DNA from: an uncultured Deinococcales bacterium
Lineage (GTDB): Bacteria > Deinococcota > Deinococci > Deinococcales > JAAFIG01
NCBI GenBank assembly: GCA_964247135.1
Contig: CAXTTL010000062.1
Location: 1-21,354, forward strand
Direction: 5' to 3'
DNA length: 21,354 nt
The position numbers and the translations under genes were made by a program. Shown one piece after another: positions 1 to 21,354 of this stretch (the stretch's first letter is position 1; each line of letters opens with the position of its first letter). The notes under the pieces are model-generated. The model saw only the letters and a list, made by a program, of their open reading frames with translations, did not search any database and had not been told where the DNA came from.

Positions 1-853
1 GCGCATGAACAAAACGACCCTCGAGTTGCTCGAGAAGATCGGCTCGAATGCTGGGGTTCGTGAATTGCTCGTGCCTGCGGCGTCCGAAGTCAGTGAAACG
101 CAATTGCTTTCCCGCGATGGGCGCGAGTTGCCTGGCGGTGTGTTCAGTTTGCGCTTTCACAGCCTCGAAGCCGCTCGAGCCGCGTTGGAAAGCCTTAAAG
201 TCTTCGAGCGTTCCGAATTTGTTGGTGATGGACTCTCGAATGTCTGCCAGCCATCAAGTTCGAGTCATCGTGCTTTGGAGGCACACGGCTTAGAACCCGA
301 CCCGCGCATTTTACGGTTTGCGGTCGGTTTGGAAGATACCAGGGATTTGTGGCGCGACCTCGAGCGGATGCTTGAGGCAGTTGCCCCGTTCACGCCTGAC
401 CCCGAACCAGAACCTGAAATCATCGAACCTGACGAACCCGAAGGTCAAGCCAAAACCTTTGATCCGGCGCTCGAGTCTCTGGTGAAGGGCATGAATGCCG
501 AAGAGGTGAAGTTGTTTGCGCGTTTGCGCGACTGGCGCAACCTGGCAGCCGAAAAGCTCGAGTTGAGCGGTTTTATGATTGCCTCCAACGCGATTCTTGC
601 CAACATTGCCAAAGCCAACCCGAGCACGCTCGAGGCACTGGCGGAGGTCAAAGGCATCGGACCAGAGCGGTTAAAACGTTACGGCGCGACCATGCTCGAG
701 GTGCTGGGCGACCCCGATGTGCTTGAGCGTTTGTTCCCAGAAACGCCCGAAGTTGAAGCCGAAACCGAATCGAAATCGGTAACTGAAACCTCGAGTCAAG
801 CCAAGACGTTTGACCGTCGCAAACGCCGTCGTAAGCGTCCAAAGGGTGTCTGA
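1..853 (+). CDS. Cys/Met-metabolism PLP-enzyme-like (cystathionine gamma-lyase/synthase C-terminal) domain fused to an HRDC domain; probably 5'-truncated by the window edge
   Basis: GGVFSL...RILRFAVGLEDTRDLWRDLERML matches the C-terminus of trans-sulfuration enzymes (canonical LIRLSVGLEDxxDLxxDL). An acidic Pro/Glu linker follows, then the HRDC signature LFARLRDWRNLAAEKLELSGFMIASNAILANIAKANPSTLEALAEVKGIGPERLKRYG and a basic tail RRKRRRKRPK. The frame is open to the window start and the N-terminal PLP domain is absent, so the true start is probably upstream of the window. Confidence 0.8.
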   Translation, partial: RMNKTTLELLEKIGSNAGVRELLVPAASEVSETQLLSRDGRELPGGVFSLRFHSLEAARAALESLKVFERSEFVGDGLSNVCQPSSSSHRALEAHGLEPDPRILRFAVGLEDTRDLWRDLERMLEAVAPFTPDPEPEPEIIEPDEPEGQAKTFDPALESLVKGMNAEEVKLFARLRDWRNLAAEKLELSGFMIASNAILANIAKANPSTLEALAEVKGIGPERLKRYGATMLEVLGDPDVLERLFPETPEVEAETESKSVTETSSQAKTFDRRKRRRKRPKGV

Positions 854-857
854 ATCC

Positions 858-885
858 GTAGGGGCGCTCCTTGCTGTGCCCTCTA
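858..885. repeat. GTAG-type REP-like palindrome (degenerate)
   Basis: GTAGGGGCGC-tccttgct-GTGCCCTCTA lies 4 nt after the stop codon. It shares the GTAGGGGCGC start with the copy at 7337. Confidence 0.6.
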
Positions 886-907
886 TCTCGTCTCGAGCAG
901 GAGTGCC

Positions 908-1882
908 ATGAAAGTTGTGTTATCTGGGTATTACGGTTTTGCCAACACGGGCGACGAAGCGATTTTGCTTGCCATCACCCGTGAACTGAAACGACTTGGA
1001 CACACGCCAATCGTTTTGTCTCAAACGCCCAGCGACACCGCCCAAAAGTACGGCGTCACCTCTAAAGCCAGAATGCAGCCGCTCGAGCTTTTAGACGCAC
1101 TGTGGAGCGCGGATGCCCTGCTTTCTGGAGGCGGTGGGTTGCTGCAAGACAAAACCAGCGCCCGAACGTTAACCTACTACCTGACCATCATCCGAATTGC
1201 CAGGTTGTTCGGCAAGAAAGTCGCCATTTTCAACCAAAGCATCGGACCACTCTCGAGGAACGGCGAAAAAAGTGTTGCCAGCGCTTTAAAAGGCATCAAC
1301 GCCATCGTGCGCGAAAAGACCTCGCAAGCCTACCTCGAGCGGCTCGGCATTCCGACCAAACTTGGTGGCGACCCCGCGTTGTTGCTCGAAGCCAAAGCAG
1401 TTTCTCGAGATGCCAATACGGTGGTGCTTGCGCCGCGTGGTGGACAACCAGGTGCAACCGCAAAACTCGCCGAACTGGCTCGAGTTTTGATTCAAAACGG
1501 CAAGCGCGTGATCGCGCTGTCGTTCCAACCAGGGGTGGACACCAGCGAACTCGAGGCATTTAAGACCATAACGGGCGTGCAACTCGAGGAAACTGCAGAC
1601 CCAGACCGTGCGCTCGAGATTATTGCTGGGGCTGGCGCGGTGGTCGGTGTCCGACTTCATGCTGTGATCTTGGGTGCGGCGGCAGGGACAACGTTTTATG
1701 GGATCAGTTACGACCCGAAAGTCGCGGCGTTCTGCCAAGATGCTGGCGCGTTGTCGCTTGGTACAGATTTTGATGTCTCTGTGCTCTTAAATGCGATTCT
1801 CGAGCGGCGACAACCCGATTGGAATGCAGTTAACGCCATGCGTGACCGTGCTCGAGCCAGTTTTTTGCTGGCGTTAAACTGA
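908..1882 (+). CDS. csaB: Polysaccharide pyruvyl transferase CsaB
   Basis: N-terminal SGYYGFANTGDEAIL, SGGGGLLQDKTS, QSIGPL, GVRLHAVI and ISYDPKV are CsaB family motifs. AGGAG SD precedes the ATG. Confidence 0.92.
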   Translation: MKVVLSGYYGFANTGDEAILLAITRELKRLGHTPIVLSQTPSDTAQKYGVTSKARMQPLELLDALWSADALLSGGGGLLQDKTSARTLTYYLTIIRIARLFGKKVAIFNQSIGPLSRNGEKSVASALKGINAIVREKTSQAYLERLGIPTKLGGDPALLLEAKAVSRDANTVVLAPRGGQPGATAKLAELARVLIQNGKRVIALSFQPGVDTSELEAFKTITGVQLEETADPDRALEIIAGAGAVVGVRLHAVILGAAAGTTFYGISYDPKVAAFCQDAGALSLGTDFDVSVLLNAILERRQPDWNAVNAMRDRARASFLLALN

Positions 1883-1883
1883 T

Positions 1884-2633
1884 TTAAAGCTCAAGCACCA
1901 AACTTGGGTTGAAGCTGGGCACGCGTTCGTCAGGGTACCCGCGTTGATTGCTGATGATTCGCGTCGAACCGTGTGTAAAATCGGCGTTGTGATGCGTATG
2001 ACCGTAAATCCAGAGATCAATTTTAAAACCTTCGATCAATGGCTCGAGGTTGGTGGCAAAAGCCGCCGAAAGCAAATCGCCCTGGTATTTGGGATTAAAC
2101 GCTTTTGCGGTTGGTGCATGGTGCGTGACGACTACCGTGCGACCTGAAAACGGAATCTCGAGTTGCTGTTCTAACCACTTTAAGCTTGCGGAATGAAGCG
2201 TGGCGGTGTCCATTGGGCGCAAACGACTGAACTTTGGACTGTGCCGAATCAAACGGTAATCCGCCATTTTCTGTTGCGCGTCCCACATTGTTAAAGCACG
2301 ATTCTCGAGTCCTAAAATTTCAAAATCCGTCCAGAGTGTACAACCCAAAAACCGCACGTTCTGCAAAACAAAAGCGTCATTCTCGAGAACATGCACCTGC
2401 GAACCTCGAGCCAAATCTTGAAGCTCGGTGGTGAGTTTTGGAATGGCTGCGCCGTAATACTCGTGGTTGCCTGCCACGTACACCACAGGAATTTCAGAGG
2501 TTTTTAAAGCCTGTTCGAGTCCAGATAATTTTGTGCCAATGTCCCCAGCCAGCACCAGCACATCCGCATCCGTTTTTGGAATGGTGAATGCTGCAAATTC
2601 GGTGTGCAAATCGCTAAGGACATGAAGTTTCAT
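1884..2633 (-). CDS. Calcineurin-like metallophosphoesterase
   Basis: All five metal-binding motifs are present: SDLH, AGDI, GNHE, THH and GHTH. Confidence 0.9.
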   Translation of the reverse strand: MKLHVLSDLHTEFAAFTIPKTDADVLVLAGDIGTKLSGLEQALKTSEIPVVYVAGNHEYYGAAIPKLTTELQDLARGSQVHVLENDAFVLQNVRFLGCTLWTDFEILGLENRALTMWDAQQKMADYRLIRHSPKFSRLRPMDTATLHSASLKWLEQQLEIPFSGRTVVVTHHAPTAKAFNPKYQGDLLSAAFATNLEPLIEGFKIDLWIYGHTHHNADFTHGSTRIISNQRGYPDERVPSFNPSLVLEL

Positions 2634-2685
2634 GCCCAGTCATACACTATTCTGGCTTGAAAATCATGTTTGAACCTGATGAATA

Positions 2686-3078
2686 TTAATTTGCATTCAG
2701 ACGGCGTTGAGCTACTAACGCCCGAATATTTTGCATTGGAGGAATAATCCACAAATACGTCAGTCCTAACCATCCAGTCATGATGGTTGCATATATTAAT
2801 GAACGCATTGAGTCAGGCGATAAACCGATAACGCAAAACACTGAGCAAAAATAATACATAACTGTGATGATGGCTAATGCTGCCGATCCATAATATTCAA
2901 TACCAAGGAAAAGCAATGATTTAAATTTTTGAGCTGGTGTATTGCCACGCAACTGATGTTTCGCATATTCTCGCCATGCGTCAACAAAAAATCGCCACAC
3001 AGTTGGTAAAAATGGAATAATACGATCAACAATCGCCGCTAAAATCACTAGCAGAATCCCCTCTATCATGCTAGACAT
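2686..3078 (-). CDS. AT-rich hypothetical membrane protein (start may be the ATG at 3069)
   Basis: 130-aa ORF with about 3 hydrophobic segments. It is visibly AT-richer than its neighbours and fills an otherwise empty gap. No family recognised. Confidence 0.5.
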   Translation of the reverse strand: MSSMIEGILLVILAAIVDRIIPFLPTVWRFFVDAWREYAKHQLRGNTPAQKFKSLLFLGIEYYGSAALAIITVMYYFCSVFCVIGLSPDSMRSLIYATIMTGWLGLTYLWIIPPMQNIRALVAQRRLNAN

Positions 3079-3145
3079 AATAGCATAAGTTTTTTAGATT
3101 TTAACAAAACAACATATTTTGTTGATACGCTTGATATTTCGAGCT

Positions 3146-5227
3146 TTACATTTTCACCTGACGGATTTTTAAGACCACACTGCGAAAATTTTGGAGTTGC
3201 ACATCAAGCCCAACGTGCATCAATGCCGCGCCAGACCGTGCGCCCGTAAACCCTTCAACTTCGTACAAGCTTTGCGGCTCGAGTCCAGCCAATTTGATGT
3301 TGGGCAGGGTCACGGGTTCGGGCAGGTGCGTGCGGAAGGCGAACAGTACGGCTTCGGATTGGTCTTTGGTGACATACATGAGGCTCGAGAATGCGTTTGT
3401 GAAGGCGCTCCGCAAACGGTATTGATGCCCGAATTGAACGATGTGGCGAATGTCTTTGTACTGGGCAATCAGTTTTGTGGCGGTTTGACGTTGTGTGGTG
3501 TCCCAGTGCAGCAGATTCGCGCCCACCCCGAGCGTGCCAGCCATTGCCACGTGAAACGCGAACTCGAGCGGCAAGTGCTTGGGGTCTGAATCCGTGACCC
3601 AAGCTTCCATCGTGATGGCTGGAAAAACTTGCGAGAAGCCTTCTTGAATGTTGAGCCTCGAGAGTGACATGGTGTTGTCGCTGATCCAGATTTGATCGGC
3701 AAATTTCAAAATGCCCAGGTCGGCGCGTCCGCCACCGCCAGAGCAGCTTTGCCAGACGACCTTCGGGTGACGTTCGCGCAATGTTCCCCAAAGACGGTAA
3801 AGCCCTTGGACGTAACGCACCCAGATGGCTCGAGCTTCCAAGCCTTCCAAGCCGCCTGGTTCGGAGACGTTGCGGTTCATGTCCCATTTGATGAACGCGA
3901 TGTTGTGGTCGGTCAGCAGCTTGTCAATCAGGGCAATCAGGTAATCTTGCACCTCGGTTAACGCCAAATTGAGGATCAGTTGATCGCGCATCAGGGTGCG
4001 TTCGCGGGTCGGGAAGTGAATTACCTAGTCAGGATGCGCACGGTACAAATCCGAATTGGGGCTGACCATTTCAGGCTCGAGCCACAACCCAAATTCCATG
4101 CCGAGCGCGTTGACTTTCTCAATTAAAGGTGTGATGCCGTTGGGGAATTTTGTTTCGTCCGCCCACCAGTCCCCCAGGGCGGCGTTGTCGCTGCCCCGAC
4201 CATGAAACCAACCGTCGTCCATAACGAACAATTCCACGCCCAGACCGGCGGCAATTTGTGCCAGCTCAGCCTGCGATTTTTCGTCCACGTTGAAATACGT
4301 GGCTTCCCAAGAGTTGTACAAGACCTTGTGCAGCACCTCGCCGTGCGGCAAAACACTTTCGTGCACGAACGAATGCAGCGCCCGAGCTGCGCCACCAAAC
4401 CCCGCGCTCGAGAATCCGGCGATGCTGGAGGGCGTGGTGAAACTCGAGTTGGCATAAAGGGGCAGCATAAAATCCCAGTCGTTGATGCCGAAATTGATGC
4501 GCGTCGAACCAAATTCGGTGACTTCGGCGTTCAGTTTCCAATTGCCGCTCCAAGCCAGCACACCAAACCAAACCTCGCCAGCGGTTTCGCTCGAGTTGCC
4601 AGTTTCAATCGCAAACCAGGGGTTGAACTGATGGCTGGTGGTCAAACGCCGTGACTCGAGGGTTTTGATGCCAGTTTGCAACCAGCCACGTTGAAGTTGG
4701 GTTTCATTGTACCAATGCCCTGAAAGTTGAGACAGACGGTAATTCTCGTAACGTGGGAAATGCCATTGTGCCGAAAAAATTCGCTCGAGTTGGATCAAAT
4801 CGTTGCCCGTATTTTGTACGGTGACAAGACGCTCGAGCAAATCAAAGCTTTCATGAATTCGGTAATGCAAGGTTACACGGAGCGGATAATGCTTGTCTCG
4901 CAAATGAATTTTTAACTCAGACTCGAGCACTTCGCTGCCCTCAAACTCGAGCACCGTATCGCGCACACCGTCGGAAAAACTCAGTTTGAGGCAGGGGTCA
5001 ACATAGCTCGCGCCAGCATAAGCGGGGTACTCGTAGGGCACAGTTTGTCCCGAACCACTAAACGAAGAAAACCCCTCAGAATCCATTGCGGGTGGGTAAT
5101 CCTCGAGCCGTGGCAATTTCGCGCCCCAGTACCTGTGCGTGAGCATTCCAGCCGCGTTCAAACCCAGGGCGTAAGCGGTGTTTTGCGTCTCGAGAATCCA
5201 AGATGTTTCGGTGGCATAAATCGGCAT
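3146..5227 (-). pseudogene. GH36 alpha-galactosidase interrupted by one in-frame TAG at 4025-4027
   Basis: ORFs 4025..5227 and 3146..3991 are in the same frame and read ...YRAHPD*VIHFPTRERTLMRDQLILNL..., about 693 codons in total. GH36 motifs YNSWEA, MDDGWF and GLWLEPEM are in the first part. KWDMNR, CSGGGGR and WISDNT are in the second part. The stop lies at the conserved HPDW Trp (TGG>TAG). Confidence 0.85.
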
Positions 5228-5260
5228 GACCTGATTCTAACCATTCAAGCTCGAGCTTGA
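5228..5260 (-). promoter_or_regulatory. Candidate leaderless promoter of the GH36 gene with an adjacent perfect 16-bp palindrome
   Basis: The minus strand reads TCAAGCTCGAGCTTGA-atggt-TAGAAT-caggtc-ATG. A TANNNT hexamer sits 6 nt before the ATG and there is no SD. Confidence 0.55.
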
Positions 5261-5261
5261 T

Positions 5262-6128
5262 TTACAGACCGTCGTCGTCGCGCCAATGGTTTTGCCAACG
5301 GGCATCAATCGGGTCGAGCTTGCGCTGATAGCGAATGTCCGTTGAAAGCCGCATTCGCCCGTCGGGATCGGTGTTGTTCAAACTCGCATGAACCAAATAC
5401 GGCGAATGCACCACCATGTCACCCGCCTGGTAATCCGCGATCAACCAGCGCGTCTCGAGTTGATTTGCCAGCGCGGGCAGGTCATAGGTGATGTGCTCGG
5501 CTCTGAGCGTGCCACCCTCGAGTTTGTCCCGCGCCTCGAAGTGCTTGTGGCTGCGCTCGAGGTAGGTCAAACCGCCACGGTTGACGGGGCAATCGCCCAG
5601 TGGAATCCAAGCCGAAAGCAAGTTCTCTGTGCCTTCGCGCAGGTACACCAGGTCGTAATGCGCGGGTGTGACCCAGGTGTCGTTCGGTTTGGCGTGACGA
5701 ATCAATTTGCGTTGGTGCAAATGCACCTCGCCGTCGAACAACCAGGCAAAAAATCCTTTGACCGCGCTCGAGCTGCAAAAATCCAGGTAGGTTTCACCAG
5801 GCACAATCTCGTCGAACAACACGCGGCGCACCTCAGCCAGATTGACAGTACCGCTCGAAGCGATGCCATCTTCGGGTTTGGAATTGGCTTCGAGCAAACC
5901 AGAACCGTACAATTTCTCAAAATAAAACCGTCTGAACTCGAGCGACATTTCTTGCCCCAACGCGCCCTTTAAAAACAGATAACCTTCATGCTCGAGCCTC
6001 GCCCAAAGTGCTTTGCGGTCATAACGTTCAATTTCGGGCACAGGCTCGAGCCAACCCAAACGACCAGGTTTATTCTCGAGCACGTAATCTCGGCAGGCAA
6101 GATTGGTGAATTCGGCGTTCATGGTCAT
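5262..6128 (-). CDS. Phytanoyl-CoA dioxygenase (PhyH) family Fe(II)/2-oxoglutarate dioxygenase
   Basis: HxD motif (TPAHYD), AWIPLGD, GGLTYL, AGDMVVH, distal His (HASLNN) and the 2OG-binding Arg (RLSTDIRY). Confidence 0.88.
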   Translation of the reverse strand: MTMNAEFTNLACRDYVLENKPGRLGWLEPVPEIERYDRKALWARLEHEGYLFLKGALGQEMSLEFRRFYFEKLYGSGLLEANSKPEDGIASSGTVNLAEVRRVLFDEIVPGETYLDFCSSSAVKGFFAWLFDGEVHLHQRKLIRHAKPNDTWVTPAHYDLVYLREGTENLLSAWIPLGDCPVNRGGLTYLERSHKHFEARDKLEGGTLRAEHITYDLPALANQLETRWLIADYQAGDMVVHSPYLVHASLNNTDPDGRMRLSTDIRYQRKLDPIDARWQNHWRDDDGL

Positions 6129-6141
6129 TCCAGTTTAACGT

Positions 6142-7293
6142 CTAACCTCGGGTGTCCACCACCAAACCGCCCTCGAGTTTGTCCACAACCCGCATTTCGT
6201 TCATACCAATGCCGAGCGCTTGCCTGAACATCGGCTCGAGTGTTGAGGTGTCCGCGCTGGCTTCGCCGAGCAAATGCAGATTGAGGTGATCTGTGCCAGA
6301 CTGGGTTCTCGAGATGATGAGCTGAAATTGTTTGGCGTCCAAACCAGGCACGCTTGCCAGAATCGGTCCGAGTTCTCGAGGATAAAGCTTCACGCCTTTA
6401 ACCTTGACCATCTCGTCGGTGCGTCCAATCATGCCTCGAGGAAAACGAATTCGACCGTCCGTCAGTCGCTCGACCACGGTCAAATCGCCCGTGCGAAAAC
6501 GAACGAGCGGCATGATCTCCCTCGCCAGGGTTGTAATCACCAACTCGCCCTTTTCACCGCTCGGTGTCGGCTCGAGTGTGATTGGGTCAACCACCTCGAG
6601 AATTGCCATGTTCTCGAGCGGTTCAAGTCCGTTTTGAGCCAGGGTTTCGCTTGCCACCAAACCCGTTTCGCTCATGCCGAACACGTCAAACGCCTTGCCG
6701 CCAATCGCCGTCTCGACGCGTTCGCGGTAGCCTGGAACGCTGGTGAACGCCTCGCCAGCCGCAATCAAAAATTTGAACCGTGCGCCAGCCTCAGCAACCC
6801 GCAAAGCAAACGTCGGGTTTGAAATCAAAACGTCATACTCGTGGTCGTTGGCAATCTGCGCCAAGCGATCCGCCTCGCCGGGACCGTGCGGCAGCACCGT
6901 CGCGCCGACCTGCAAGAGCGCCTCGTGAAACAACCAACCGCCCGCAAAGACATGATACCCAAATGCCACAATCACCCTCGAGCCGCGCCCGATGCCGAGC
7001 CGCGAGAACAACTCAGCGGTCGCATTGGCTTGCCATGCCAAATCGTTCTTGGAAAGGTACTCGGGCATCCAACCGCCAGGGGCGGGCGTCAAATGCACCA
7101 ACGCCGCATCAGTCAGGTCAAAACCGCCGTGTTTGTGCTTGCCAAACGCCTCTGCCAGATCGCCCCGCGTCGTGAATTCCAACTTCGAGAGGTCAGACAC
7201 CGAAGCACTTTCAAAATGCTCGAGTTTATGCTGGTACAACCCCAGGGTTCGCGCACGCTCGAGCACGTGTTGCAATTGTTGATTTCGGTTCAC
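6142..7293 (-). CDS. Phenylacetate-CoA ligase (PaaK)-family adenylate-forming protein with a divergent P-loop
   Basis: Motifs FGYHVFAGG, AGE, FGMSETG, GEKGELVITTL, PLVRFRTGDL and GRTDEMVKVKGVKLYP. The GTG at 7293 is preceded by GGAG; the ORF track starts at the TTG at 7305. Confidence 0.82.
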   Translation of the reverse strand: MNRNQQLQHVLERARTLGLYQHKLEHFESASVSDLSKLEFTTRGDLAEAFGKHKHGGFDLTDAALVHLTPAPGGWMPEYLSKNDLAWQANATAELFSRLGIGRGSRVIVAFGYHVFAGGWLFHEALLQVGATVLPHGPGEADRLAQIANDHEYDVLISNPTFALRVAEAGARFKFLIAAGEAFTSVPGYRERVETAIGGKAFDVFGMSETGLVASETLAQNGLEPLENMAILEVVDPITLEPTPSGEKGELVITTLAREIMPLVRFRTGDLTVVERLTDGRIRFPRGMIGRTDEMVKVKGVKLYPRELGPILASVPGLDAKQFQLIISRTQSGTDHLNLHLLGEASADTSTLEPMFRQALGIGMNEMRVVDKLEGGLVVDTRG

Positions 7294-7336
7294 GGTGATC
7301 TCCAAGATTGATATGGCTCGAGGGTTGCGCAGTTCT

Positions 7337-7364
7337 GTAGGGGCGCATCGCCATGCGCCCCTAC
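7337..7364. repeat. GTAG-type REP palindrome
   Basis: Perfect 12-bp inverted repeat GTAGGGGCGCAT-cgcc-ATGCGCCCCTAC, intergenic. Confidence 0.8.
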
Positions 7365-7463
7365 GCGGGAACGTGTTTGTATGGCAAGTGATTTTGGATT
7401 TTGTCTTTCAAAAATAAATTCTCAAATTTATGATTCTGCTCGAGCTTCAAGCATCTTGAGTGT

Positions 7464-8300: not shown

Positions 8301-8311
8301 GGTTGTTCTCC

Positions 8312-8350
8312 GTGGTTTGAATGTGTGGTTTGAATGTGTGGTTTGAATGT
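8312..8350. repeat. Tandem repeat 3 x 13 bp (GTGGTTTGAATGT)
   Basis: Three perfect copies at 8312-8324, 8325-8337 and 8338-8350, abutting the livF SD. Confidence 0.95.
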
Positions 8351-8370
8351 TTTTGTTTGTCTGGGTGTTC

Positions 8371-8412
8371 GTAGGGGATGGTCTGAGACCATCCCCTACA
8401 CCATCCCCTACA
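8371..8412. repeat. GTAG-type REP palindrome with a tandem duplication of its right arm
   Basis: GTAGGGGATGGTC-tga-GACCATCCCCTAC at 8371-8399. CCATCCCCTACA is repeated at 8389-8400 and 8401-8412. Confidence 0.8.
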
Positions 8413-8418
8413 AGATTT

Positions 8419-9618: not shown

Positions 9619-9742
9619 ACTTCCTCCTTGGGGCAAAAAGCCATGAGCACGAACTTCACAACGAAATTGAACCGATTTTTTCAATAAGAACCTCGAGTGT
9701 TGGATTTGTCGTTTAGGAATCTCGAGCGCGAAGGGTTTTTTG

Positions 9743-9841
9743 GTAGGGTGCGCTTCTTGACCCTTACTACAGCACCTGGCGGGCTTGGATCGCCGTGCGC
9801 ACCGCCTTTCACGTGCTTTCGGTGCGCGAGGCGCACCCTAC
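9743..9841. repeat. REPIN-like element (inverted REP doublet)
   Basis: Terminal inverted repeats GTAGGGTGCGC (9743-9753) and GCGCACCCTAC (9831-9841). Inner inverted repeat GCGCACCG...CGGTGCGC at 9797-9827. Confidence 0.75.
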
Positions 9842-9893
9842 AAATTTAATGTTCTTAAATGATGATTGTGGTTTCTCGAGTTGGACGACGTGC

Positions 9894-10967
9894 TCAGTAC
9901 TTAAACGGAAAGGTCTTAAAATAACTTCGGATCAACCGCCAGAAATTCGCCAAGCCCCTGGGTTCAAAAATCAGGAACAAAATAATCACCAAACCAAAGG
10001 TCAGCGGGCGCATGGCGGTGCCAATGTCCACGCCTTGAATTTGGGGCAGGATGCCCGACATCCACGAACCGAGGCTGGTCGCGCCGTCGTCCAAGAGTTG
10101 CAAGAATGCCGCGCCGAAGAATGCACCGGGCAAACTGCCCAGACCGCCGACGATTGCCATGGCAAGAAATTTGATGCTGACCGCAAGGGTGTAATCTTCG
10201 ACCTGAGCGCCGCGATAGAGGTAAGCGAACAACGCGCCCGCGATGCCAGCGTAAAAGCTGCCCAGAATAAACGCGGTGACTTTGGTCGTGCCTGGGTTGA
10301 TGCCCATCGCGTCGGCGGCGCGGTCATTGTCGCGCACGGCAACCAAGGAGCGCCCAAATTTTGAGCGCATGAGATTGCGCCAGATCAATGCCAGCACAAT
10401 CAGAAAAAACAATGCCACGTAGTACCAGAATTTGTTGTGCAGCAAGTAACCAATTTCGGTGCCAAAAATCACTGGGGCGGGCATGTTGATCGACTGTCCT
10501 TGTTGCAGCAAATCCGAGTGTCCGACGCCCCAACGAAAAATTTGTTGAAAAGCAATCGTGGCAATCGCCAGGTACAAATGCTTCAAGCGCATACTGGGTA
10601 AGCCGACAATACCGCCCGCAATCGCGCTGACCACACCACCGAGCGGAATGCAGAGGTAAAACGGCAAGCCGAATTTGGTGGCAAAAATCGCAGCCGTGTA
10701 CGCGCCGACGCCCAAGAACGCGGCTTGTCCAACGTTAATCAGTCCCGTGTAACCCGTTGTGATGTTCAAACCCAAAACCGCAATCGCATAGACCAAAATC
10801 GTGTCCAGGGTTTTGAGGTTCGATGATGGAACCAAAAACGGCACAATCAGCAGCACCAACAGCAGCACGCCGAGCGAAACGAATTCCGAACTGGTCGCAA
10901 ACACGCTCGAGTCTTCTGGGTAGGTCGTCTTGTAATTCCCAGTTTGGGTGAATCTCGAGGCGGGCAT
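9894..10967 (-). CDS. livM: HAAT ABC transporter permease (LivM-like)
   Basis: GLNITTGYTGLINVGQAAFLGVGAY, RLKHLYLAIATIAF, GRSLVAVRDNDRAADAMGIN and VGGLGS motifs; polytopic membrane protein. Confidence 0.9.
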   Translation of the reverse strand: MPASRFTQTGNYKTTYPEDSSVFATSSEFVSLGVLLLVLLIVPFLVPSSNLKTLDTILVYAIAVLGLNITTGYTGLINVGQAAFLGVGAYTAAIFATKFGLPFYLCIPLGGVVSAIAGGIVGLPSMRLKHLYLAIATIAFQQIFRWGVGHSDLLQQGQSINMPAPVIFGTEIGYLLHNKFWYYVALFFLIVLALIWRNLMRSKFGRSLVAVRDNDRAADAMGINPGTTKVTAFILGSFYAGIAGALFAYLYRGAQVEDYTLAVSIKFLAMAIVGGLGSLPGAFFGAAFLQLLDDGATSLGSWMSGILPQIQGVDIGTAMRPLTFGLVIILFLIFEPRGLANFWRLIRSYFKTFPFKY

Positions 10968-10997
10968 CAGATGTTCCTCGAGTCTGGCGTTTTGAAG

Positions 10998-14631: not shown

Positions 14632-14717
14632 GCGTTCACCCCTCGAGAAAGCCAGGAACAACAAAATCGGCGCAGAGAAATCTGCCACACCGACAGGTCG
14701 AATTGAAATATGACGGC

Positions 14718-14747
14718 ATTGTGTAAGCAAGACGCCGCAACTGTCAA
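14718..14747 (-). promoter_or_regulatory. Candidate sigma70-type promoter of the ABC operon
   Basis: Perfect -35 TTGACA (14747-14742) and CACAAT after an 18-nt spacer, about 90 nt upstream of livG. Confidence 0.45.
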
Positions 14748-14838
14748 GAAAAATCGAACTTTGCGAGAATCAACAAAATTCGGAATTTTCTGCACACTTT
14801 TTTAAACTCGAGTTTGAAAATGTGAAACCCGAGCGAAA

Positions 14839-14966
14839 AGACCCTCTCCCGCCCGTGGGAAAGGGTGAGGGTCTGGATGCAATTTTCATTGGATTTTGAG
14901 CCTCTCGAGAAATTTTTTAGCCAGCCCACCAAGCAACAAAATGCCCTCTCTCCTCGGAGAGAAGGC
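14839..14966. repeat. Two CCCTCTC...GAGAGGG-type GC-rich hairpins downstream of the regulator gene
   Basis: ACCCTCTCCC-gcccgt-GGGAAAGGGT (14841-14866, followed by GAGGGTCT) and GCCCTCTCTCC-tc-GGAGAGAAGGC (14943-14966). Confidence 0.55.
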
Positions 14967-15044
14967 GACCTTGCTTCCAAGGTACAAGTTTAGGATCAAG
15001 AAAGTTGGAAATGAGGGTAGCGTGACCAATTGCTGGTTTTTGAG

Positions 15045-17522
15045 TTAAGCTCGAGCGCCCTGGGCAACCGAAGCCTGATGCGGCGCATTGAAATCGTAAA
15101 TCCCATGCTCGAGCGCCCATTGGGTGGCTTGCGCCCGGGATCGAACCTCGAGTTTGCTGTAAACCGTGCTGAGGTGGCGTCCGACGGTGGCGGGGCTGAT
15201 GGATAACGTTTTCGCAATGGTCTTGTCGCTCAAACCTTGCGACACCAGGCGCAAGACCTCGAGTTCGCGGGCGGTCAGTCCGACGGGTGGATCAAGTTCT
15301 GGGCTGTGTTGTGTTGCTGGCTCTGGCATGGCAAGAATGGCTTCGGGCGTCATGGTGCGACCCGCCGCCACGGTTGCCGCCCAGGTGACCGCACCGAGCG
15401 CTGAAGCCGCCCCAGCCAAGTGGCGCTCGAGGTCAGAGGTTTCTTGTTCGGTTCGGGGCAAGCTCGAGCGTTCCCGCAGGGCGTTGGCACTGCCGTGCAG
15501 TCGGGCGGCACGCATGGTTTGTTGGCAGGTGGCGGCGGTCACCGCCAAGCCCTCGAGCGCCCCCGCAATCCCCTCAATATCGGCAATCTGGCTCGAGACT
15601 TCCAGGCATTCTTCAAACCAGGTGTTGGCAGCGTTGGTGTCTTGAAGCTCGAGCGCCACCGTACCCAAATTGCCAAGGGCAATGCCGGCGCTGCGTTTGT
15701 CGCCAAGTTCACGGGTGATGGCGAGCGATTGGCTGTACAGCTCGAGGGCGCGGTGCTGGTTGCCCAAACTTTGCACGATCAGTCCGAGGTTGCCGAGCGT
15801 CGCGCCGATGCCGACCTGATCGCCCAGCTCGCGGCGCAAGCCTAAACTTTGATTGTAATAATCTTCGGCTGTCTCGAGGTGGTTTTGAGTGTAATGCAGC
15901 GCCCCAAGGTTGTTCAGCACTGCCGCGACAAACCAGGGGTGCTCAATGCCGCGTCCAAGTTCGAGCGCCTGCAAGAGTCGCTCTCGGGCGAGGTCATATT
16001 GTTTTCTACGTCTGGCGATCAAACCCAAATTATTGAAAATCGAGGCGATGGCTTTGGGATTCTCGACCTCGTGCCATAAAGCATTTGCCAGCACATAAAC
16101 CTGTTCTGCCTGATCGAGCGCACCTTGCTGCAACAGACAACCGCCGTAACCCGCCAAGGCTTTGGCTCGAGCGGCGGCTGACCCCTCGAGTTCGAGGCTG
16201 CGCTTCAGCCAGCCTGCGCCCTCGGTCAGATGTCCGTGGGTTTGCCAGAATGTTGCCAGTGTGCCGCTGAGATGCAGGGCGCGTTCGGCATCTCGGGCTT
16301 CCAAACTCCAAGCCAGGGCAGCCCGCAGGTTGGCATGTTCGGACTCGAGGGTTGCAAGCCAGTGCGCCTGCTCAGCGCCCAACAGTTCGTTTTCCGCACG
16401 TTCTGAGAGTTCCAAAAAATAATCGCTGTGTTTGGTCTTGACGCTTTTGCATTCTGCGCTTTGCTCGAGCATTTCCGTGGCGTACTCGCGGAGGGTTTCG
16501 AGCATCAAAAACCGTGAAGAGTTGCCAAAGTGTTGCACGCCAATCAAACTCTGATCGGTCAGGGCTGCCAGACCATCCAGCGCCTCGAGCTTGAGGTCAT
16601 GGCTGCAAATTGCCTGAACGGCGCTGAAATCCGCCCCGCCCGCAAAGACCGATAACCTGGCAAACAAGTTTTTTTCAGCCTCTGAAAGCAGCGAGACGCT
16701 CCAGGCAATCGCCTCGCGCAAACTGCGTTGACGTTCGGGCAGGTCACGCACACCACCCGTCAAGACCGACAAACGATGCTCGAGCCGATCCAGCAAAGCC
16801 TGCGGCGGCAAGAGTTTGATTCTTGCCGCCGCCAACTCGAGCGCCAAGGGCAGACCGTCCAAGCGCTGGCAAATGCTCGAGATGATCGCGGCGTTTTCGG
16901 GGGTCAATTCAAAATCGGTTTTGGCGGCGCTGGCGCGTTGGACAAACAAATTGATGGCATCGTTGCGGCTTAAAGTTTCAAAATCTTCACCCTGTTTTGG
17001 CAACTCGAGCGGCGCGACCACAAATTCGTGCTCGCCAGACAAGTGCAGCAAACTGCGGCTGGTGACCAGCACCTTCAGACCAGGGCAAGCCGCCAGCAAC
17101 TCGAGCAGCAAGGTTGCCGCCTCGGGCAGATGCTCAAAATTGTCGAGCACCAGAAGTTGCTGCGCCTGCGCGAGCTGGGTTTTGAGCCGCTCGAGCGCGT
17201 CATCGGCGGTTTGCCGGTTGGTGGCTCGTAAAATGGCTTGCGGCACAAGCGCCGCATCCTGGACTGCCGCCAGCGAGACAAACACCGCGCCGTCCGCCAA
17301 ATCGTCTCTCAGCTCGAGCGCCACCCGCAACGCCAGACGGGTTTTGCCAACCCCGCCAGGTCCGGTCAGGGTCAACAACCGAACATCGGCACGGCGCAGC
17401 AAATCCCGAACCAGCACGATTTCTTGAGTACGTCCAACCAACGGCGTGCTGATTGCAAACCAGTGCCGCACGTCATGGATGGCGACAAAAGGCTCGAGTC
17501 GATTGCTTGTGACCTGGTTCAT
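15045..17522 (-). CDS. STAND-class (NB-ARC-like) ATPase-TPR-LuxR HTH transcriptional regulator
   Basis: LVGR, Walker [12 protein letters not shown], Walker [38 protein letters not shown], multiple TPRs (NNLG...A...Y.QSL) and a C-terminal LuxR HTH ([45 protein letters not shown]). GGAGG SD. Confidence 0.9.
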
Positions 17523-17637
17523 CTCCGACCTCCAGCGTCTTTTGAAAAGTGTAACCCAGAATGCTGTTCAAAAGTGATACGCCGTTAAAAGAATTTTGGA
17601 TGTTGAACCGAGTCCAGCCCTGGCTTCCCGAGAAATA

Positions 17638-17675
17638 AAAAGCTCGAGAGGCAGATTATGGCTTCTCGAGCTTTT
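17638..17675 (-). terminator. Rho-independent terminator after icd (potentially bidirectional)
   Basis: AAAAGCTCGAGAGGC-agattatg-GCTTCTCGAGCTTTT hairpin with A/T tracts on both sides, 14 nt after the icd stop. Confidence 0.75.
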
Positions 17676-17689
17676 GCTGGACTGATCGC

Positions 17690-18985
17690 CTACATGTTTT
17701 CGATCAACGCATCACCAAACTCGCTACACTTTAACAGCGTTGCACCGTCCATCAAACGGTGGAAGTCGTAGGTCACACGTTTTTGCCCAATCGTCTTTGA
17801 CAGGCTCGAGAGAATCAAATCCGCCGCCTCGTTCCAACCAAAGAACCTGAACATCATCTCACCGCTCAAAATCACGCTCGAGGGATTGACCTTGTCCTGT
17901 CCAGCGTACTTGGGCGCTGTGCCGTGGGTCGCCTCAAAAACCGCATGACCCGAAATGTAATTGATGTTCGCGCCTGGGGCAATGCCAATGCCGCCGACCT
18001 GGGCTGCCAGCGCGTCAGAAAGGTAATCGCCGTTCAAATTCAAGGTGGCGATCACGTCGTACTCGCTTGGGCGCAGCAAAATTTGTTGCAAGAAGGCATC
18101 GGCAATCGCGTCCTTGACCAGCAACTTGCCGGACTTCAGGGCGGCATCCTGCTCGGCGTTGGCGGCTGGTTCGCCCTGCGCCTCCTTGGTGCGCTCCCAC
18201 TGCGCCCAGGTGTACACCTGATCGCCAACTTCGCGCTCCGCCAGCGCATAACCCCAGTTTTTAAAGCTACCCTCGGTGAACTTCATGATGTTGCCCTTGT
18301 GCACCAAGGTCAAATTTCGGCGTTTGTTCTCGAGCGCGTACTTCAGGGCAGCCCGCACCAGGCGTTCTGTGCCCTCAATCGAAACGGGTTTGATGCCGAT
18401 GCTCGAGGTGTCAGGGAAACGAATTTTGGTGACTTTCAGTTCCTCTTGCAAGAATTTGATGAGCTTGATGGCGTCAGGGGTTTGCGCCTGGTATTCGATG
18501 CCCGCGTAAATGTCTTCGGTGTTCTCGCGGAAGATCACCATGTCCACCAACTCGGGTTGTTTGACTGGGCTTGGCACGCCCGTGAAATACTGCACCGGAC
18601 GGATGCAGGCGTACAAATCCAGAATTTGGCGCAACGCCACGTTGATGCTGCGAATGCCACCGCCGACGGGTGTGGTCAGCGGTCCTTTGATGCCGACCAA
18701 ATACTCGCGGATCGCATCGTTGGTTTCCTCGGGCAGCCAGACGGTCTCGTTGTAGACTTCGTTGGCTTTTTCGCCCGCGTAAACTTCCACCCAGGCAATT
18801 TTTTTCTTGCCGCCATATGCCTTTTCGACGGCGGCATCCATCACGCGCACGCTGGCACGCCAGATGTCCGCACCCGTGCCGTCACCTTCGATAAATGGCA
18901 CGATGGGGTTGTTTGGAACGTTCAAAACGCCGTTCTGCATGGTGATTTTCTCGCCAGCAGGGATCACAATTTTCTGGTAACTCAT
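17690..18985 (-). CDS. icd: NADP-dependent isocitrate dehydrogenase (E. coli-type homodimeric)
   Basis: [63 protein letters not shown] and [18 protein letters not shown] motifs. GGAGG SD. Confidence 0.97.
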
Positions 18986-19078
18986 GTCGCCTCCGTTTGT
19001 AAATGCCTCAACAGGCTATCACGAGTCTCGAGGGAGCGGGATTTGAAGGCGTGACTGCTGGCGTAACACCTGGCAGCA

Positions 19079-19106
19079 CAAAACCCGCAGTTGGCTGCGG
19101 GTTTTG
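19079..19106 (-). terminator. Rho-independent terminator after the lipoprotein gene
   Basis: Perfect 12-bp stem CAAAACCCGCAG-ttgg-CTGCGGGTTTTG, 13 nt after the stop. Confidence 0.75.
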
Positions 19107-19119
19107 CTTGAAGGATCGC

Positions 19120-19638
19120 TTAACTTGCTGGTTGGGTGATTTTGACATCCAAGACAATCGGCAACGGCGAACCGTTATCGCCGGACACCAACATCAAGAC
19201 CGTGTAGTTGCCGACGGGGGTTGCGGGCGGAGCTTTCACCAACCAAGTTAGGCTCATGCTGTCAAGTAAGCGGTAGGTCGTCGATCCAACTTCGGTGATT
19301 CTACGCGAAGCCTCTTGTCCAACAAGTTCAACCCTCCAGCCTGTCGGTGTTTTGATGTCCTGAACTTTAAGCCAGTTGACGCTGCGGGATTTCACCGTGC
19401 CAACGCTGATGTCTGACTGAGAAGTAAACAATGGATCAAGCACCTCGTCCCGATTGCTCAGGCTGACCAGTCCAATGTAGCCAATGGTTTTGACAAACCA
19501 TTCCGGTCCTGCGGTGATGCTGGCAGAATCGCTGTCTCGAGCGTCAATTGGTGTGTATCTCGAGCTTCCTGGAACACTGGGGGCGCAGGCGCTGAAAAGA
19601 AAGCTGACGAAAACCAATAATCCCAAAAACTTCTTCAT
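19120..19638 (-). CDS. Hypothetical lipoprotein
   Basis: Signal peptide MKKFLGLLVFVSFLFSA-C with a lipobox, GAGGAG SD and its own terminator. The beta-rich C-terminus (APPATPVGNYTVLMLV) is reminiscent of Ig-like folds. Confidence 0.75.
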   Translation of the reverse strand: MKKFLGLLVFVSFLFSACAPSVPGSSRYTPIDARDSDSASITAGPEWFVKTIGYIGLVSLSNRDEVLDPLFTSQSDISVGTVKSRSVNWLKVQDIKTPTGWRVELVGQEASRRITEVGSTTYRLLDSMSLTWLVKAPPATPVGNYTVLMLVSGDNGSPLPIVLDVKITQPAS

Positions 19639-19724
19639 GAATGCTCCTCATCCTGACACCATTCTTCGGCGTCAGGCTACCATACCTTTACGGGCAAGTA
19701 TCGCTCAAAGTTCCAGCTCGAGCG

Positions 19725-20219
19725 TCAGGTTGCAAGATTTGATTGCAACCTGAATTTGGCAATCTTATAGATTTCCTCGAGTGCCGTAACAATCTCGAGT
19801 TCAACAGAATTCTCGAGCCGAATCACAAATTGCTCGAGAACACTTGCTCGGGTGTGATTGCGCACGGCGATGATGAACGGAAAGCCAAATTTTTCGCGGT
19901 ATGCACTGTTCAAACTCGAGAAGCGCTCGAATTCGGTTGGGCTGAGACGGTCAAGCCCAAGTCCTGCCTGTTCTGAAACGCTCTGCTCGCTCATCTTCAA
20001 TTTTGCGCCCAAATCTGGATGGGCGCGAATCAAGTTCAGTTGCGTCTCGAGTGGAGCCGTTTTGACCGCGTTCACCATTGCGGTGTGAAGATTTTCCAAA
20101 CTCGAGAATGGACGTCCTGAAATGACATGTTCAGCCACCCAAGGCGAGTGCTCAAAGATTGCGGCGAGGCTCGAGATAAATTCAGTTTCAGGCATGTGAT
20201 TGAGTTGATCCAAGGTCAT
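19725..20219 (-). CDS. uraD: OHCU (2-oxo-4-hydroxy-4-carboxy-5-ureidoimidazoline) decarboxylase
   Basis: IFEHSPWVAE, LIRAHPDLG, SVSEQAGLGL, LNSAYREKFGFPFIIAV and EIYKIAKFRL motifs. The ATG at 20219 is 2 nt after the upstream TGA. Confidence 0.92.
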   Translation of the reverse strand: MTLDQLNHMPETEFISSLAAIFEHSPWVAEHVISGRPFSSLENLHTAMVNAVKTAPLETQLNLIRAHPDLGAKLKMSEQSVSEQAGLGLDRLSPTEFERFSSLNSAYREKFGFPFIIAVRNHTRASVLEQFVIRLENSVELEIVTALEEIYKIAKFRLQSNLAT

Positions 20220-20221
20220 GC

Positions 20222-21205
20222 TCACCACAAATCATGCACCAAAGCTTTGAGTCTCGAGTCGTAAATCGCTTTGACTTTTTGCATGGTGTCACTCGAGAGG
20301 GCTGGCATGTTGGCGGCGTGGGCGTTGCTTTCAACTTGCACGGTGGTTTTCGCACCTGGAATCGCGCAACTTATTTCAGGAAACATCAGAATCCAACGCA
20401 GTGCCAGTTGCGCCAACGTGTAACCTTCGGGCACAAGCGCTTTCAATTCTTCGACCGCCTCGAGCGCCACGTCGTAATCGACGCCAGAAAAGGTTTCGCC
20501 TTTGTCAAAATGCTCACCGTGGCGGTTGAAAGCGCGGTGGTCGTCGGGCGCGAAGCTCGAGGTTTTGGAGAGTTTGCCGGTCAGCATTCCACTGGCGAGC
20601 GGAACCCTCGCCAAAATACCAACTTTTGCCTCTCGAGCGGCGGCAAAGAAGGTTGAAGTGGGTTTGAGCCTGAACATGTTGAAAATGATTTGCACAGTTT
20701 TGACGTTTTCGTGTTGAATGCCGCGCAGGGCTTCGGCAACGGTTTCGACGCTGATGCCGTAGTGCTTAATCATCCCAAGATTTACCATTTCGTCCAGAAT
20801 CGCAAACACGGCATCCGATTCGTAAACGTCAGGCGACGGGCAGTGGAGTTGCAGTAAATCCAAGCTCTCAACCTCGAGGTTTTTCAGGCTGCGAGCCACC
20901 CAGGCGTGAAGGTTTTCTTTGGTGTAACCCTCGAGCGTTTGTTTGGGCAGCCTGCGCCCCGCTTTGGTCGCCACAAAAAACGGTTCTGGTCGTTCGCGGC
21001 GCAATTGGGCGATTAAACGTTCGGAGCGTCCGTCGCCGTAGACGTCGGCGGTGTCAAAAAAGTTAATTCCAAGGTCGAGCGCCTTGTGCAAACTCGCCAT
21101 CGAGTCGCGGTCATCGACGGTGCCCCACGTGCCACCGATTGCCCAAGCGCCGTAACTGATGCTCGAGACTTTTAATCCTGTTTTTCCCAATTCGCGGTAT
21201 TCCAT
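20222..21205 (-). CDS. Aldo/keto reductase
   Basis: LGKTGLKVS, FFDTADVYGDGRSE, VATKAG, DLLQLH, RVPLASGML and AIPGAK motifs (catalytic D/Y/K/H tetrad). AGGAG SD. Confidence 0.93.
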   Translation of the reverse strand: MEYRELGKTGLKVSSISYGAWAIGGTWGTVDDRDSMASLHKALDLGINFFDTADVYGDGRSERLIAQLRRERPEPFFVATKAGRRLPKQTLEGYTKENLHAWVARSLKNLEVESLDLLQLHCPSPDVYESDAVFAILDEMVNLGMIKHYGISVETVAEALRGIQHENVKTVQIIFNMFRLKPTSTFFAAAREAKVGILARVPLASGMLTGKLSKTSSFAPDDHRAFNRHGEHFDKGETFSGVDYDVALEAVEELKALVPEGYTLAQLALRWILMFPEISCAIPGAKTTVQVESNAHAANMPALSSDTMQKVKAIYDSRLKALVHDLW

Positions 21206-21354
21206 GAGTTCTCCTGTAACGCTCGAGTTATCGTATCAGTGTTTGTTCAACTTGTTTTTTGCAAGCTAAAAACACTTGCGCCAAACGCAATCTGATCGCC
21301 GGCGTGAAGCATGATTTTGGTGTTGGTTTGAATTCGGTGCTTGTTGACGCTCGT

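Follow-up and report, generated by a model that had tools for sequence, protein, structure and literature searches.

A lineage of Deinococcota in which CTCGAG probably behaves as a highly iterated palindrome maintained by a bias on the whole hexamer

A stretch of 21,354 nucleotides from an uncultured Deinococcales bacterium (GenBank assembly GCA_964247135.1, contig CAXTTL010000062.1, positions 1 to 21,354; here, the window) raises the question of why one six-base palindrome, CTCGAG, should be scattered so thickly over an ordinary piece of chromosome. CTCGAG is the recognition site of the restriction enzymes XhoI and PaeR7I. In the original prediction, made from the letters of the window, it was proposed to be a highly iterated palindrome (HIP), enriched about 25-fold and created or preserved by some process of the lineage. 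The estimate of about 148 copies given there is exact: the window holds 148 sites, which run from 20-25 to 21222-21227. When the window was shuffled 100 times with its dinucleotides preserved, the mean was 4.14 sites (standard deviation [SD] 1.75) and the largest count was 8, so that no shuffle reached 148. As had been proposed, the sites occur in all codon phases and between genes. By our own gene calls, 87, 12, and 34 of them lie in phases 0, 1, and 2, respectively, and 15 are non-coding, which corresponds to 7.9 per kb in the 1,898 non-coding bases. The genes concerned are housekeeping genes (isocitrate dehydrogenase, a branched-chain amino-acid ABC transporter, AMP-binding enzymes, a LuxR/TPR regulator, and an aldo-keto reductase); thus, the signal is not tied to a special locus.

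The genome to which the window belongs (G000; 5,091,702 bases in 386 contigs of mean length 13 kb, GC content 52.7%, 84% complete) contains 33,925 copies of CTCGAG. This is 6.66 per kb, or 24.75 times the expectation from base composition, and 4.0% of all bases lie inside a site; the second commonest palindromic hexamer, TTTAAA, has 3,272 copies. The excess is not confined to the window. Each of the 1,448 five-kb windows of the genome holds at least 8 sites (mean, 33.2; SD, 7.95), density is uncorrelated with GC content across these windows (r = 0.03), and at least one site is present in 4,390 of the 4,557 genes (96%) that our own simple gene caller predicted at a coding fraction of 85%. Hereafter, f1 denotes the family of G000 (19 genomes in five genera), and g1 denotes its genus.

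What is over-represented is the hexamer as a whole. The flanks of the sites are near random, with G at -1 and C at +6 reaching frequencies of 0.38 to 0.39 and A at -3 and T at +8 reaching 0.37, and the unit is therefore the hexamer and not a longer repeat. The 18 words that differ from it by one base (one-off words) have 96 to 2,216 copies each in G000. Their copies sum to 9,573 for changes at positions 1/6, 8,267 at positions 2/5, and 4,572 at positions 3/4, and the low count at the inner positions is due partly to a general avoidance of CTAG. A degenerate unit of the AvaI/BsoBI type, CYCGRG, was rejected on the counts of its versions (CTCGAG, 33,925; CCCGAG, 2,134; CTCGGG, 2,216; CCCGGG, 124). 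A general bias toward the tetramer TCGA fails as an explanation as well, because 33,925 of the 54,610 TCGA copies lie inside CTCGAG and the other 20,685 are close to the number expected from base frequencies (about 19,800). The TCGA bias is a consequence of the CTCGAG excess and not its cause.

Codon usage does not account for the excess either, as the original prediction had argued from the spread of sites over the codon phases. When synonymous codons were shuffled within each gene, so that protein and codon usage were kept, 3,996 ± 52 sites remained, compared with 28,418 observed in genes; shuffles of codon order left 1,683 (10 replicates each). Site density is 6.57 per kb in coding DNA and 7.16 per kb in non-coding DNA at a lower GC content (47.5%), for which the ratio of observed to expected sites is 32.5. 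The excess is as large in non-coding DNA as it is at synonymous positions. Its imprint on proteins is visible in dipeptide frequencies. Leu-Glu is the most over-represented dipeptide of G000, with 22,852 occurrences and an observed/expected ratio of 2.37, whereas the ratio is 1.01 for Glu-Leu and 1.04 for Leu-Glu in a baseline of 79 unrelated bacterial loci. CTCGAG spells 77% of these Leu-Glu pairs, compared with 4.9% expected from the usage of CTC and GAG elsewhere. Of the tripeptides able to host a site in phase 1 or phase 2, 43% and 48%, respectively, do so. The earlier remark that the word appears to yield many Leu-Glu, Ala-Arg, and Ser-Ser dipeptides holds for Leu-Glu, while it is only weakly true of Ala-Arg (1.19) and Ser-Ser (1.62, with a baseline of 1.43).

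The strength of the bias was estimated in three independent ways. (i) In non-coding DNA, the ratio of site enrichment to one-off enrichment is 27.6, the natural logarithm of which is 3.3. (ii) Among Leu-Glu pairs, CTCGAG is favored over CTCGAA 31-fold and over CTTGAG 20-fold, relative to background codon use. (iii) Four blocks of G000 (about 80 kb) were aligned to five other species of g1; the six species differ pairwise by 12 to 14.5% and form a star-like tree whose terminal branches measure about 0.075. Among codons that keep their amino acid, CTC has changed in 6.4% of the ordered species pairs if it lies inside a site and in 42.7% if it lies outside; for GAG, the figures are 4.7% and 30.7%. 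This slow-down of about 6.5-fold (2.2- and 3.2-fold under a stricter filter without fast columns) is what standard fixation theory would predict for a scaled bias of about 3. The three measures are concordant on a bias at the DNA level, of about e^3.3, that acts on the whole hexamer. We infer an effective bias S of about 3.3 per site, corresponding to a fixation ratio of about 27 to 1 and comparable to strong codon bias.

The same alignment allowed us to count losses and gains, using crude gene calls of our own, blastn projections, and parsimony over the 80 kb; the species being related, no probabilities are attached to the counts. Among the 18 hexamers for which the data sufficed, CTCGAG has the lowest loss rate. 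It was lost 90 times over 1,533 ancestral site-branches; 70 of the losses are single-step changes, and 64 of these are transitions (to CTTGAG, 21; CTCGAA, 13; CCCGAG, 9; TTCGAG, 8; CTCAAG, 8; CTCGGG, 5). The loss from C to T was seen 29 times at the CpG cytosine, both strands included, and 21 times at the outer cytosine, and, as losses do not pile up at any single position, decay of 5-methylcytosine at the CpG is not indicated. Over the whole genome, the observed/expected ratios of the one-off words are 1.5 to 2.3 for transitions, 0.54 to 0.99 for transversions free of CTAG, and 0.20 to 0.22 for the two that contain CTAG. This contrast between transitions and transversions would follow if most near-sites were former sites that have decayed and are draining back. 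Fifty-one sites are private to one of the six species. Thirty-eight of them lie at least two bases from the majority word, but they stand in fast-evolving stretches (flank divergence, 0.13 to 0.19), and creation of sites in multi-base patches was therefore rejected. Strict three-step gains number 3, compared with 0.2 to 3 expected by rough arithmetic, so that a special creation mechanism is not needed. Sites decay by ordinary point mutations, mostly transitions, and new sites keep arising; the whole-hexamer bias is currently active on all resident DNA. In its general form, the original prediction is supported: the lineage runs a process, acting on DNA and irrespective of coding, by which CTCGAG is kept and, in the course of time, also made.

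How far this bias reaches into proteins can be followed in the isocitrate dehydrogenase gene of the window, which is listed here together with the other features of the CTCGAG pattern.

20-21227, either strand: 148 dispersed CTCGAG sites, on average about 144 bp apart, in 18 predicted genes and the DNA between them
18329-18334, minus strand: CTCGAG in phase 0 in the isocitrate dehydrogenase gene (17690-18985, minus strand), encoding Leu-Glu (in L-E-N)
18402-18407, minus strand: CTCGAG in phase 2 at a conserved Thr/Ser-Ser-Ser of isocitrate dehydrogenase (alignment column 586)
17877-17882, minus strand: CTCGAG in phase 2 at an invariant Pro-Ser-Ser of isocitrate dehydrogenase (alignment column 762)
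20-34, either strand: two CTCGAG sites 9 bp apart, near the shortest spacing observed
9881-10905, either strand: longest CTCGAG-free stretch (1,025 bp), within a branched-chain amino-acid permease gene (9894-10967, minus strand)
2411-3277, either strand: second-longest CTCGAG-free stretch (867 bp), where the window is poorest in GC (0.482 over 2001-4000)

At the column of the 18329 site, all four aligned g1 sequences have L-E spelled CTCGAG, while the other 19 sequences have I-A, I-D, I-E, I-K, V-E, or L-H; the site thus accompanies an amino-acid replacement in a conserved enzyme. At another column, seven f1 members (genera g2, g3, and g5) and G157, which belongs to another family, have L-E-Y spelled CTCGAG, and the other eleven non-f1 sequences have I-x-Y, or F-L-Y in G156. 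At column 586, the site is present in all 12 f1 sequences and in G042; it is lacking in G024, G040, and G159 despite identical amino acids, and the effect of the site there is therefore purely synonymous. At column 762, P-S-S is found in 23 of 23 sequences, and the site is found in 9 of the 12 f1 sequences and in G156 but in none of the 10 others. Within this alignment, the CTCGAG spelling of P-S-S/T-S-S positions is used by site-rich genomes only. The DNA-level bias is strong enough to shift amino-acid sequences. The gene carries only two to six sites per sequence, and so few sites in a conserved enzyme indicate that protein constraint limits site density. The 1,025-bp gap in the gene of a hydrophobic membrane protein is consistent with the same constraint on site placement. 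Within the 867-bp gap, a 130-amino-acid open reading frame (ORF) at 2686-3078 has no Pfam match.

Three further observations concern the window itself. A glycoside hydrolase family 36 (GH36) alpha-galactosidase gene on the minus strand is split into two ORFs, 3146-3991 and 4025-5227; the upstream ORF stops at position 141 of the Melibiase profile and the downstream ORF restarts at position 155, which may reflect a frameshift, a stop codon, or an assembly error. Four short intergenic stretches (about 7332-7373, 8365-8412, 9740-9845, and 17638-17675) have dozens of matches per g1 genome in five genomes at 75 to 100% identity and are probably REP (repetitive extragenic palindromic)-like repeats. 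The ORF at 5-853 on the plus strand joins the C-terminal part of a Cys/Met-metabolism pyridoxal-phosphate enzyme (profile positions 266-380) to an HRDC domain and could be a fusion, a read-through of two genes, or the product of a miscalled start.

Along the chromosome of G000, gaps between sites have a mean of 148 bp and a coefficient of variation (CV) of 0.96. Their distribution is near-geometric, i.e., placement is near-Poisson, with a deficit below 25 bp. Gaps longer than 200 bp make up 23.3% (26.0% expected), and gaps longer than 400 bp make up 5.2% (6.7% expected). The minimum spacing genome-wide is 7 bp, and a spacing of 6 bp, which creates GAGCTC, never occurs. Over distances to 300 bp, the range covered with these short contigs, the sole period is 3 bp. 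Relative to genes, density is flat at about 6.5 per kb, apart from peaks of 13 per kb in the first 25 bp past stop codons (2-fold) and 9.3 per kb at 25 to 50 bp before starts; these may reflect the use of the word in terminator or repeat hairpins. Density also varies with how widely the DNA is shared: there are 6.87 sites per kb in DNA that G000 shares with three or more congeners and 5.87 in the unshared DNA of the same blocks. A 20-kb block without a match in the five other g1 species (G000:C1:5001-25000; GC 0.496), which includes two tectonin-domain genes, has 3.9. The poorest five-kb windows carry conjugative type IV secretion genes, a DDE transposase, a sugar-uptake operon, and the tectonin-domain genes; for instance, a VirD4/TraG-type coupling protein and a TraC/VirB4-like ATPase are encoded at G000:C75:9500-18000, where there are 10 to 15 sites per 5 kb. 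All resident DNA is marked, and mobile or accessory DNA, the probable newcomer, is marked less.

The trait is family-wide in f1 and patchy outside it. All 19 f1 genomes are CTCGAG-rich (4.3 to 6.8 per kb), although isocitrate dehydrogenase identity is as low as 84 to 88% between the five genera (84 to 98% across the family). The ratio of sites to the one-off pair CTCGAA/TTCGAG is 5.9 to 24.5 in f1 and 0.16 to 10.5 in 19 of 22 sampled genomes from four other families; the other three, from genus g9, were set aside, as they have hardly any CTCGAA. In these three genomes (family f5; 2.1 to 2.2 Mb), CTCGAA/TTCGAG has 17 to 163 copies per strand, compared with about 1,050 to 1,390 for the reversed control. 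We surveyed 364 Deinococcota genomes from 60 genera and six families (the total includes the unpublished G327, on which no claim is based). More than 4 CTCGAG per kb is found in 21 of them, namely, the 19 f1 genomes and G156 (8.6 per kb) and G157 (7.0 per kb), two members of the Deinococcaceae genus g23 (family f3), the third member of which, G158, has 0.3 per kb. Checked on genome DNA, the observed/expected ratio is 26 to 31 in G156 and G157 and 1.3 to 1.6 in G158, at similar GC content. A site-level comparison of G157 with G158 was abandoned, as the two are alignable in the isocitrate dehydrogenase gene only and, at 75% identity, are too divergent. Intermediate levels occur in G042 of genus g19 (3.6 per kb at 68% GC; observed/expected ratio, 10.7) and in g26, g27, and g13 of family f5 and several genera of family f2 (2 to 3.5 per kb); genera g34, g41, and g56 likewise count as intermediate. 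In the high-GC family f4, CTCGAG reaches 1.7 to 2.9 per kb alongside 0.7 to 0.9 per kb of GAGCTC, a level that looks like the result of Leu/Glu codon usage. The earlier remark that palindromes of this kind are as a rule avoided holds for the largest genus, g7, in which none of the 111 genomes exceeds 0.36 CTCGAG per kb. With a distribution so patchy and graded, the agent seems to be one that lineages can gain, lose, or tune.

Two kinds of known repeated words invite comparison. The first is HIP1, to which the original prediction aptly likened CTCGAG. HIP1 (GCGATCGC) and the alternate HIPs (GGCGCC, GCsGC, and rCCGGy) of cyanobacteria are described by Elhai (2015; PMC4390886) and Xu et al. (2018; PMC5861425). 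Like them, CTCGAG is a short GC-rich palindrome that is enriched tens-fold, occurs in all frames and in non-coding DNA, and is not explained by codon use; like them, it is conserved between genomes above control words and is shared by a clade with exceptions and replacements. It differs in belonging to another phylum, in being another word, a hexamer instead of an octamer, and in its clear effect on amino acids. Its density of about 6.7 per kb compares with roughly 1 per kb for HIP1 (PMC4390886). Moreover, the central association of the HIPs is with a cognate methylase, whereas no cognate or clade-wide methylase was found for CTCGAG in f1 within the scope of our survey (see below). In HIPs, one-base deviations gather at the outer positions, which points to a methylated inner core. 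Kilobase-scale periodic spacing is another HIP feature (Xu et al. 2018; PMC5861425), and HIP1 has recently been proposed as an uptake sequence acting in transformation (PMC13756078). Neither “CTCGAG” nor “Deinococ” occurs in the accessible text of the two HIP papers (PMC4390886 and PMC5861425), and our searches of the published literature gave no report of CTCGAG abundance in any organism, though oligomer tables in supplementary files may exist. CTCGAG gives a second, denser case of highly iterated palindromes, outside the cyanobacteria.

The second kind comprises the DNA uptake sequences (DUS) of Neisseriaceae and the uptake signal sequences (USS) of Pasteurellaceae. These, too, are over-represented in all frames and in spacers, shape peptides, have decayed one-off versions, and are shared by relatives. 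They can accumulate by drive without a benefit at each site, and many of them form inverted pairs at terminators. Natural transformation is known from both Deinococcus and Thermus. In contrast to DUS and USS, which are non-palindromic 9- to 12-mers at about 1 per kb, CTCGAG is palindromic, has six bases, is about 6 to 8 times denser, shows no more than the 2-fold peak past stop codons, and marks accessory DNA as well. The XhoI and PaeR7I systems share with f1 the word and the reading of the whole hexamer, but CTCGAG is enriched in f1, while g7 avoids it as if it were restricted.

Taken together, we consider it probable that CTCGAG is a genuine lineage-wide highly iterated palindrome at a balance of mutation and fixation bias, with the bias acting on duplex DNA and on the whole hexamer. 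Because the trait is patchy within the phylum, the agent is likely to be a single dispensable, sequence-specific protein function that has been gained and lost, and it would not be a canonical DNA methyltransferase inherited across f1. As to what this agent does, our guess, which we offer tentatively by analogy with uptake sequences and with the recent proposal for HIP1, is a self-DNA tag. Such a tag would bias DNA exchange or recombinational repair toward CTCGAG-bearing DNA and would accumulate by molecular drive, as uptake sequences do, with no site-by-site regulatory function. It is more speculative to suppose that a word-writing drive independent of methyltransferases, under which mutations toward CTCGAG are fixed about 27 times more readily, has been switched on or off several times in the phylum, with full effect in f1 and part of g23 and in part elsewhere. 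Hexamer palindromes read as Leu-Glu or Glu-Leu may be chosen because proteins can accommodate them at the lowest cost.

Several observations weigh against a balance of this kind or against the self-DNA tag. On terminal branches, the 90 losses exceed the 51 private sites. Conserved Leu-Glu pairs gained a site in 4 of 127 cases per branch (0.031), while about 0.16 would be needed to balance a loss of 37 in 780. The directional conversion of one-mismatch words to CTCGAG, which the original prediction had put forward as a check, did not clearly emerge: 2 of 325 shared one-offs were converted, a rate not clearly above the pooled 0.0044 of other hexamers. Accordingly, g1 may be slowly losing sites, or many non-site positions may be unable to take one. 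Furthermore, a drive by homologous exchange is expected to reach accessory DNA less well, yet accessory DNA present in only one of the six species still has 3.9 to 5.9 sites per kb. Finally, known uptake sequences have the non-palindromic, longer, and sparser form described above.

Methylation-directed repair or selection, the model of Elhai for HIPs, is a possible though doubtful alternative. Every genome would methylate CTCGAG, and a repair system that reads methyl groups would favor mutations toward the word and undo those that break it; the methylases would be non-orthologous or of an unrecognised kind. Each alternate cyanobacterial HIP is paired with a methylase for that word (PMC4390886), and a 2026 preprint (10.64898/2026.06.24.734251) has CTCGAG among the methylated motifs of hot-spring communities. 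CTCGAG appears to be a common target in the phylum, as the avoidance in all g7 genomes indicates, and whole-hexamer specificity suits a Type II-like reader. Every f1 genome examined holds several methylases, such as an orphan beta-class enzyme on contig C36 of G000 and, in G009, a gamma-class enzyme that has an uncharacterized partner. Our survey covered six Pfam families, three of the six in five high-quality genomes plus G000, in incomplete assemblies, and target specificity is not readable from the sequence of a methylase. Within this scope, no methylase orthologue common to f1 was found, despite the high identity of isocitrate dehydrogenase across the family. PF01555 is missing from 3 of the 19 f1 genomes, including the single-contig G011, and PF00145 is missing from G008. 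PF02086 (D12) is present in 18 of the 19, but in unrelated groups, and the gamma-class methylases of about 500 residues in the five high-quality genomes are 25 to 59% identical to one another. The orphan beta-class methylase on C36 was rejected as the driver because orthologues (at least 74% identity) exist in only 2 of 18 relatives, plus one fragment. Enzymes of the bacteriophage exclusion (BREX) and type IIG kinds, the targets of which are 6-mers methylated at the fifth base, were rejected as well, since the large gamma-class proteins of G000, G005, G008, G009, G011, and G012 are non-orthologous, with a best cross-genome identity of 25%. G000 has no Vsr, and the loss from C to T at the CpG cytosine is little above that at the outer cytosine. 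The methylation-coupled version of the original prediction found no support in this survey, although different, non-orthologous CTCGAG methylases in each genome, or enzymes of an unrecognised family, would be compatible with these results.

G000 avoids many palindromic hexamers, about 40 of the 64 having fewer than 500 copies, and among its scarcest words are GGCC (380), GGGCCC (1), CGGCCG (3), AGGCCT (4), CGTACG (5), GGATCC (7), CCGCGG (11), and CAGCTG (15). It encodes restriction-modification pairs of several types (an NgoPII-like nuclease with a C5 methylase, Eco29kI-like, MvaI/BcnI-like, and NotI-like; contigs C14, C178, C189, and C207). The NgoPII-like pair fits the scarcity of GGCC and the Eco29kI-like pair fits that of CCGCGG, which suggests that the avoided palindromes are partly matched by the genome's own pairs. 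The NgoPII-like nuclease and its C5 methylase lie beside Sua5 (C14:36040-39157); in G005 (C6), the same place is taken by a 397-residue protein and a D12 methylase, and it therefore seems to be a variable restriction-modification slot. A search for the XhoI-family nuclease PF04555 gave no match in G000, although this is a weak test, as the control profile matched in no genome.

GAGCTC, which has the same halves in the opposite order, has 0 copies in the 5.09 Mb of G000 and 3 to 568 copies in the other 18 f1 genomes, and it is the rarest palindromic hexamer in f1. In g23, its copies number 2 in G156 and 30 in G157, both site-rich, compared with 384 in the site-poor G158. G000 has a weak RE_SacI-like gene adjoining a D12 methylase, and the RE_SacI family is found in 10 of the 364 genomes, including 6 of the 19 in f1 (g1 and G006 only). 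A SacI-like system was nevertheless rejected as the cause of the missing GAGCTC, because four non-f1 genomes with strong RE_SacI matches do not avoid the word. Among the 80 loci listed for viral contigs with three CTCGAG sites within 72 bp, none combined a middle GC content, absence of GAGCTC, and about 6 sites per kb.

Rather unlikely, though a serious rival, is the reading that CTCGAG is a weakly selected protein-binding site, either of a nucleoid or architectural protein or of a nuclease for which it would be a palindromic Chi-like stop that marks self DNA. The advantage conferred by any one site would be tiny. Spacing is slightly more even than random (the CV of 0.96 and the shortage of long gaps), almost every gene has a site, the bias is as strong in coding as in non-coding DNA, and density doubles just past stop codons, all of which would suit such a role. 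However, there is no period but that of 3 bp and placement is otherwise near-Poisson, so that spacing is not strongly selected. No candidate protein was identified, and the way in which the trait comes and goes among related genomes fits a dispensable system more readily than chromosome architecture. The Chi-like variant has the further difficulty that a Chi-like role is normally strand-oriented, which is impossible for a palindrome.

It is very improbable that the sites are a relic, written by a past drive and now only decaying. The surplus of losses over private sites and the low gain at conserved Leu-Glu pairs, both given above, are what a relic would show, but the idea is largely refuted by the 6.5-fold slower change of codons inside sites than of the same codons outside. 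In addition, five genera separated by 84 to 88% isocitrate dehydrogenase identity all keep their high density, and private sites do arise. The last reading, in which the excess follows from base composition, codon usage, or TCGA bias, or from a dispersed repeat or an assembly artefact, is refuted and deserves practically no credence: a maximal-order Markov model predicts 27,444 of the 33,925 sites only because its pentamer counts already contain the word, and the codon-usage-like CTCGAG of f4 is matched there by GAGCTC, whereas in f1 the shuffles, the non-coding excess, the random flanks, the TCGA count outside the word, the same signature in 19 separate assemblies, and the conservation of site positions between species all speak against it.

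HIP1 has been unexplained for three decades, partly because it is confined to one phylum and is constantly accompanied by methylases. The CTCGAG system of f1 provides an independent test bed for HIPs that is stronger, quantifiable, and apparently free of a shared methylase. Natural on/off contrasts exist within one phylum, with 21 site-rich genomes on the one side and, on the other side, site-poor relatives (such as G158 in g23) and a sister genus that avoids the word; these contrasts make gene-content association and simple bench tests feasible. For the genomes themselves, CTCGAG density is a practical marker that aids binning and flags recently acquired DNA.

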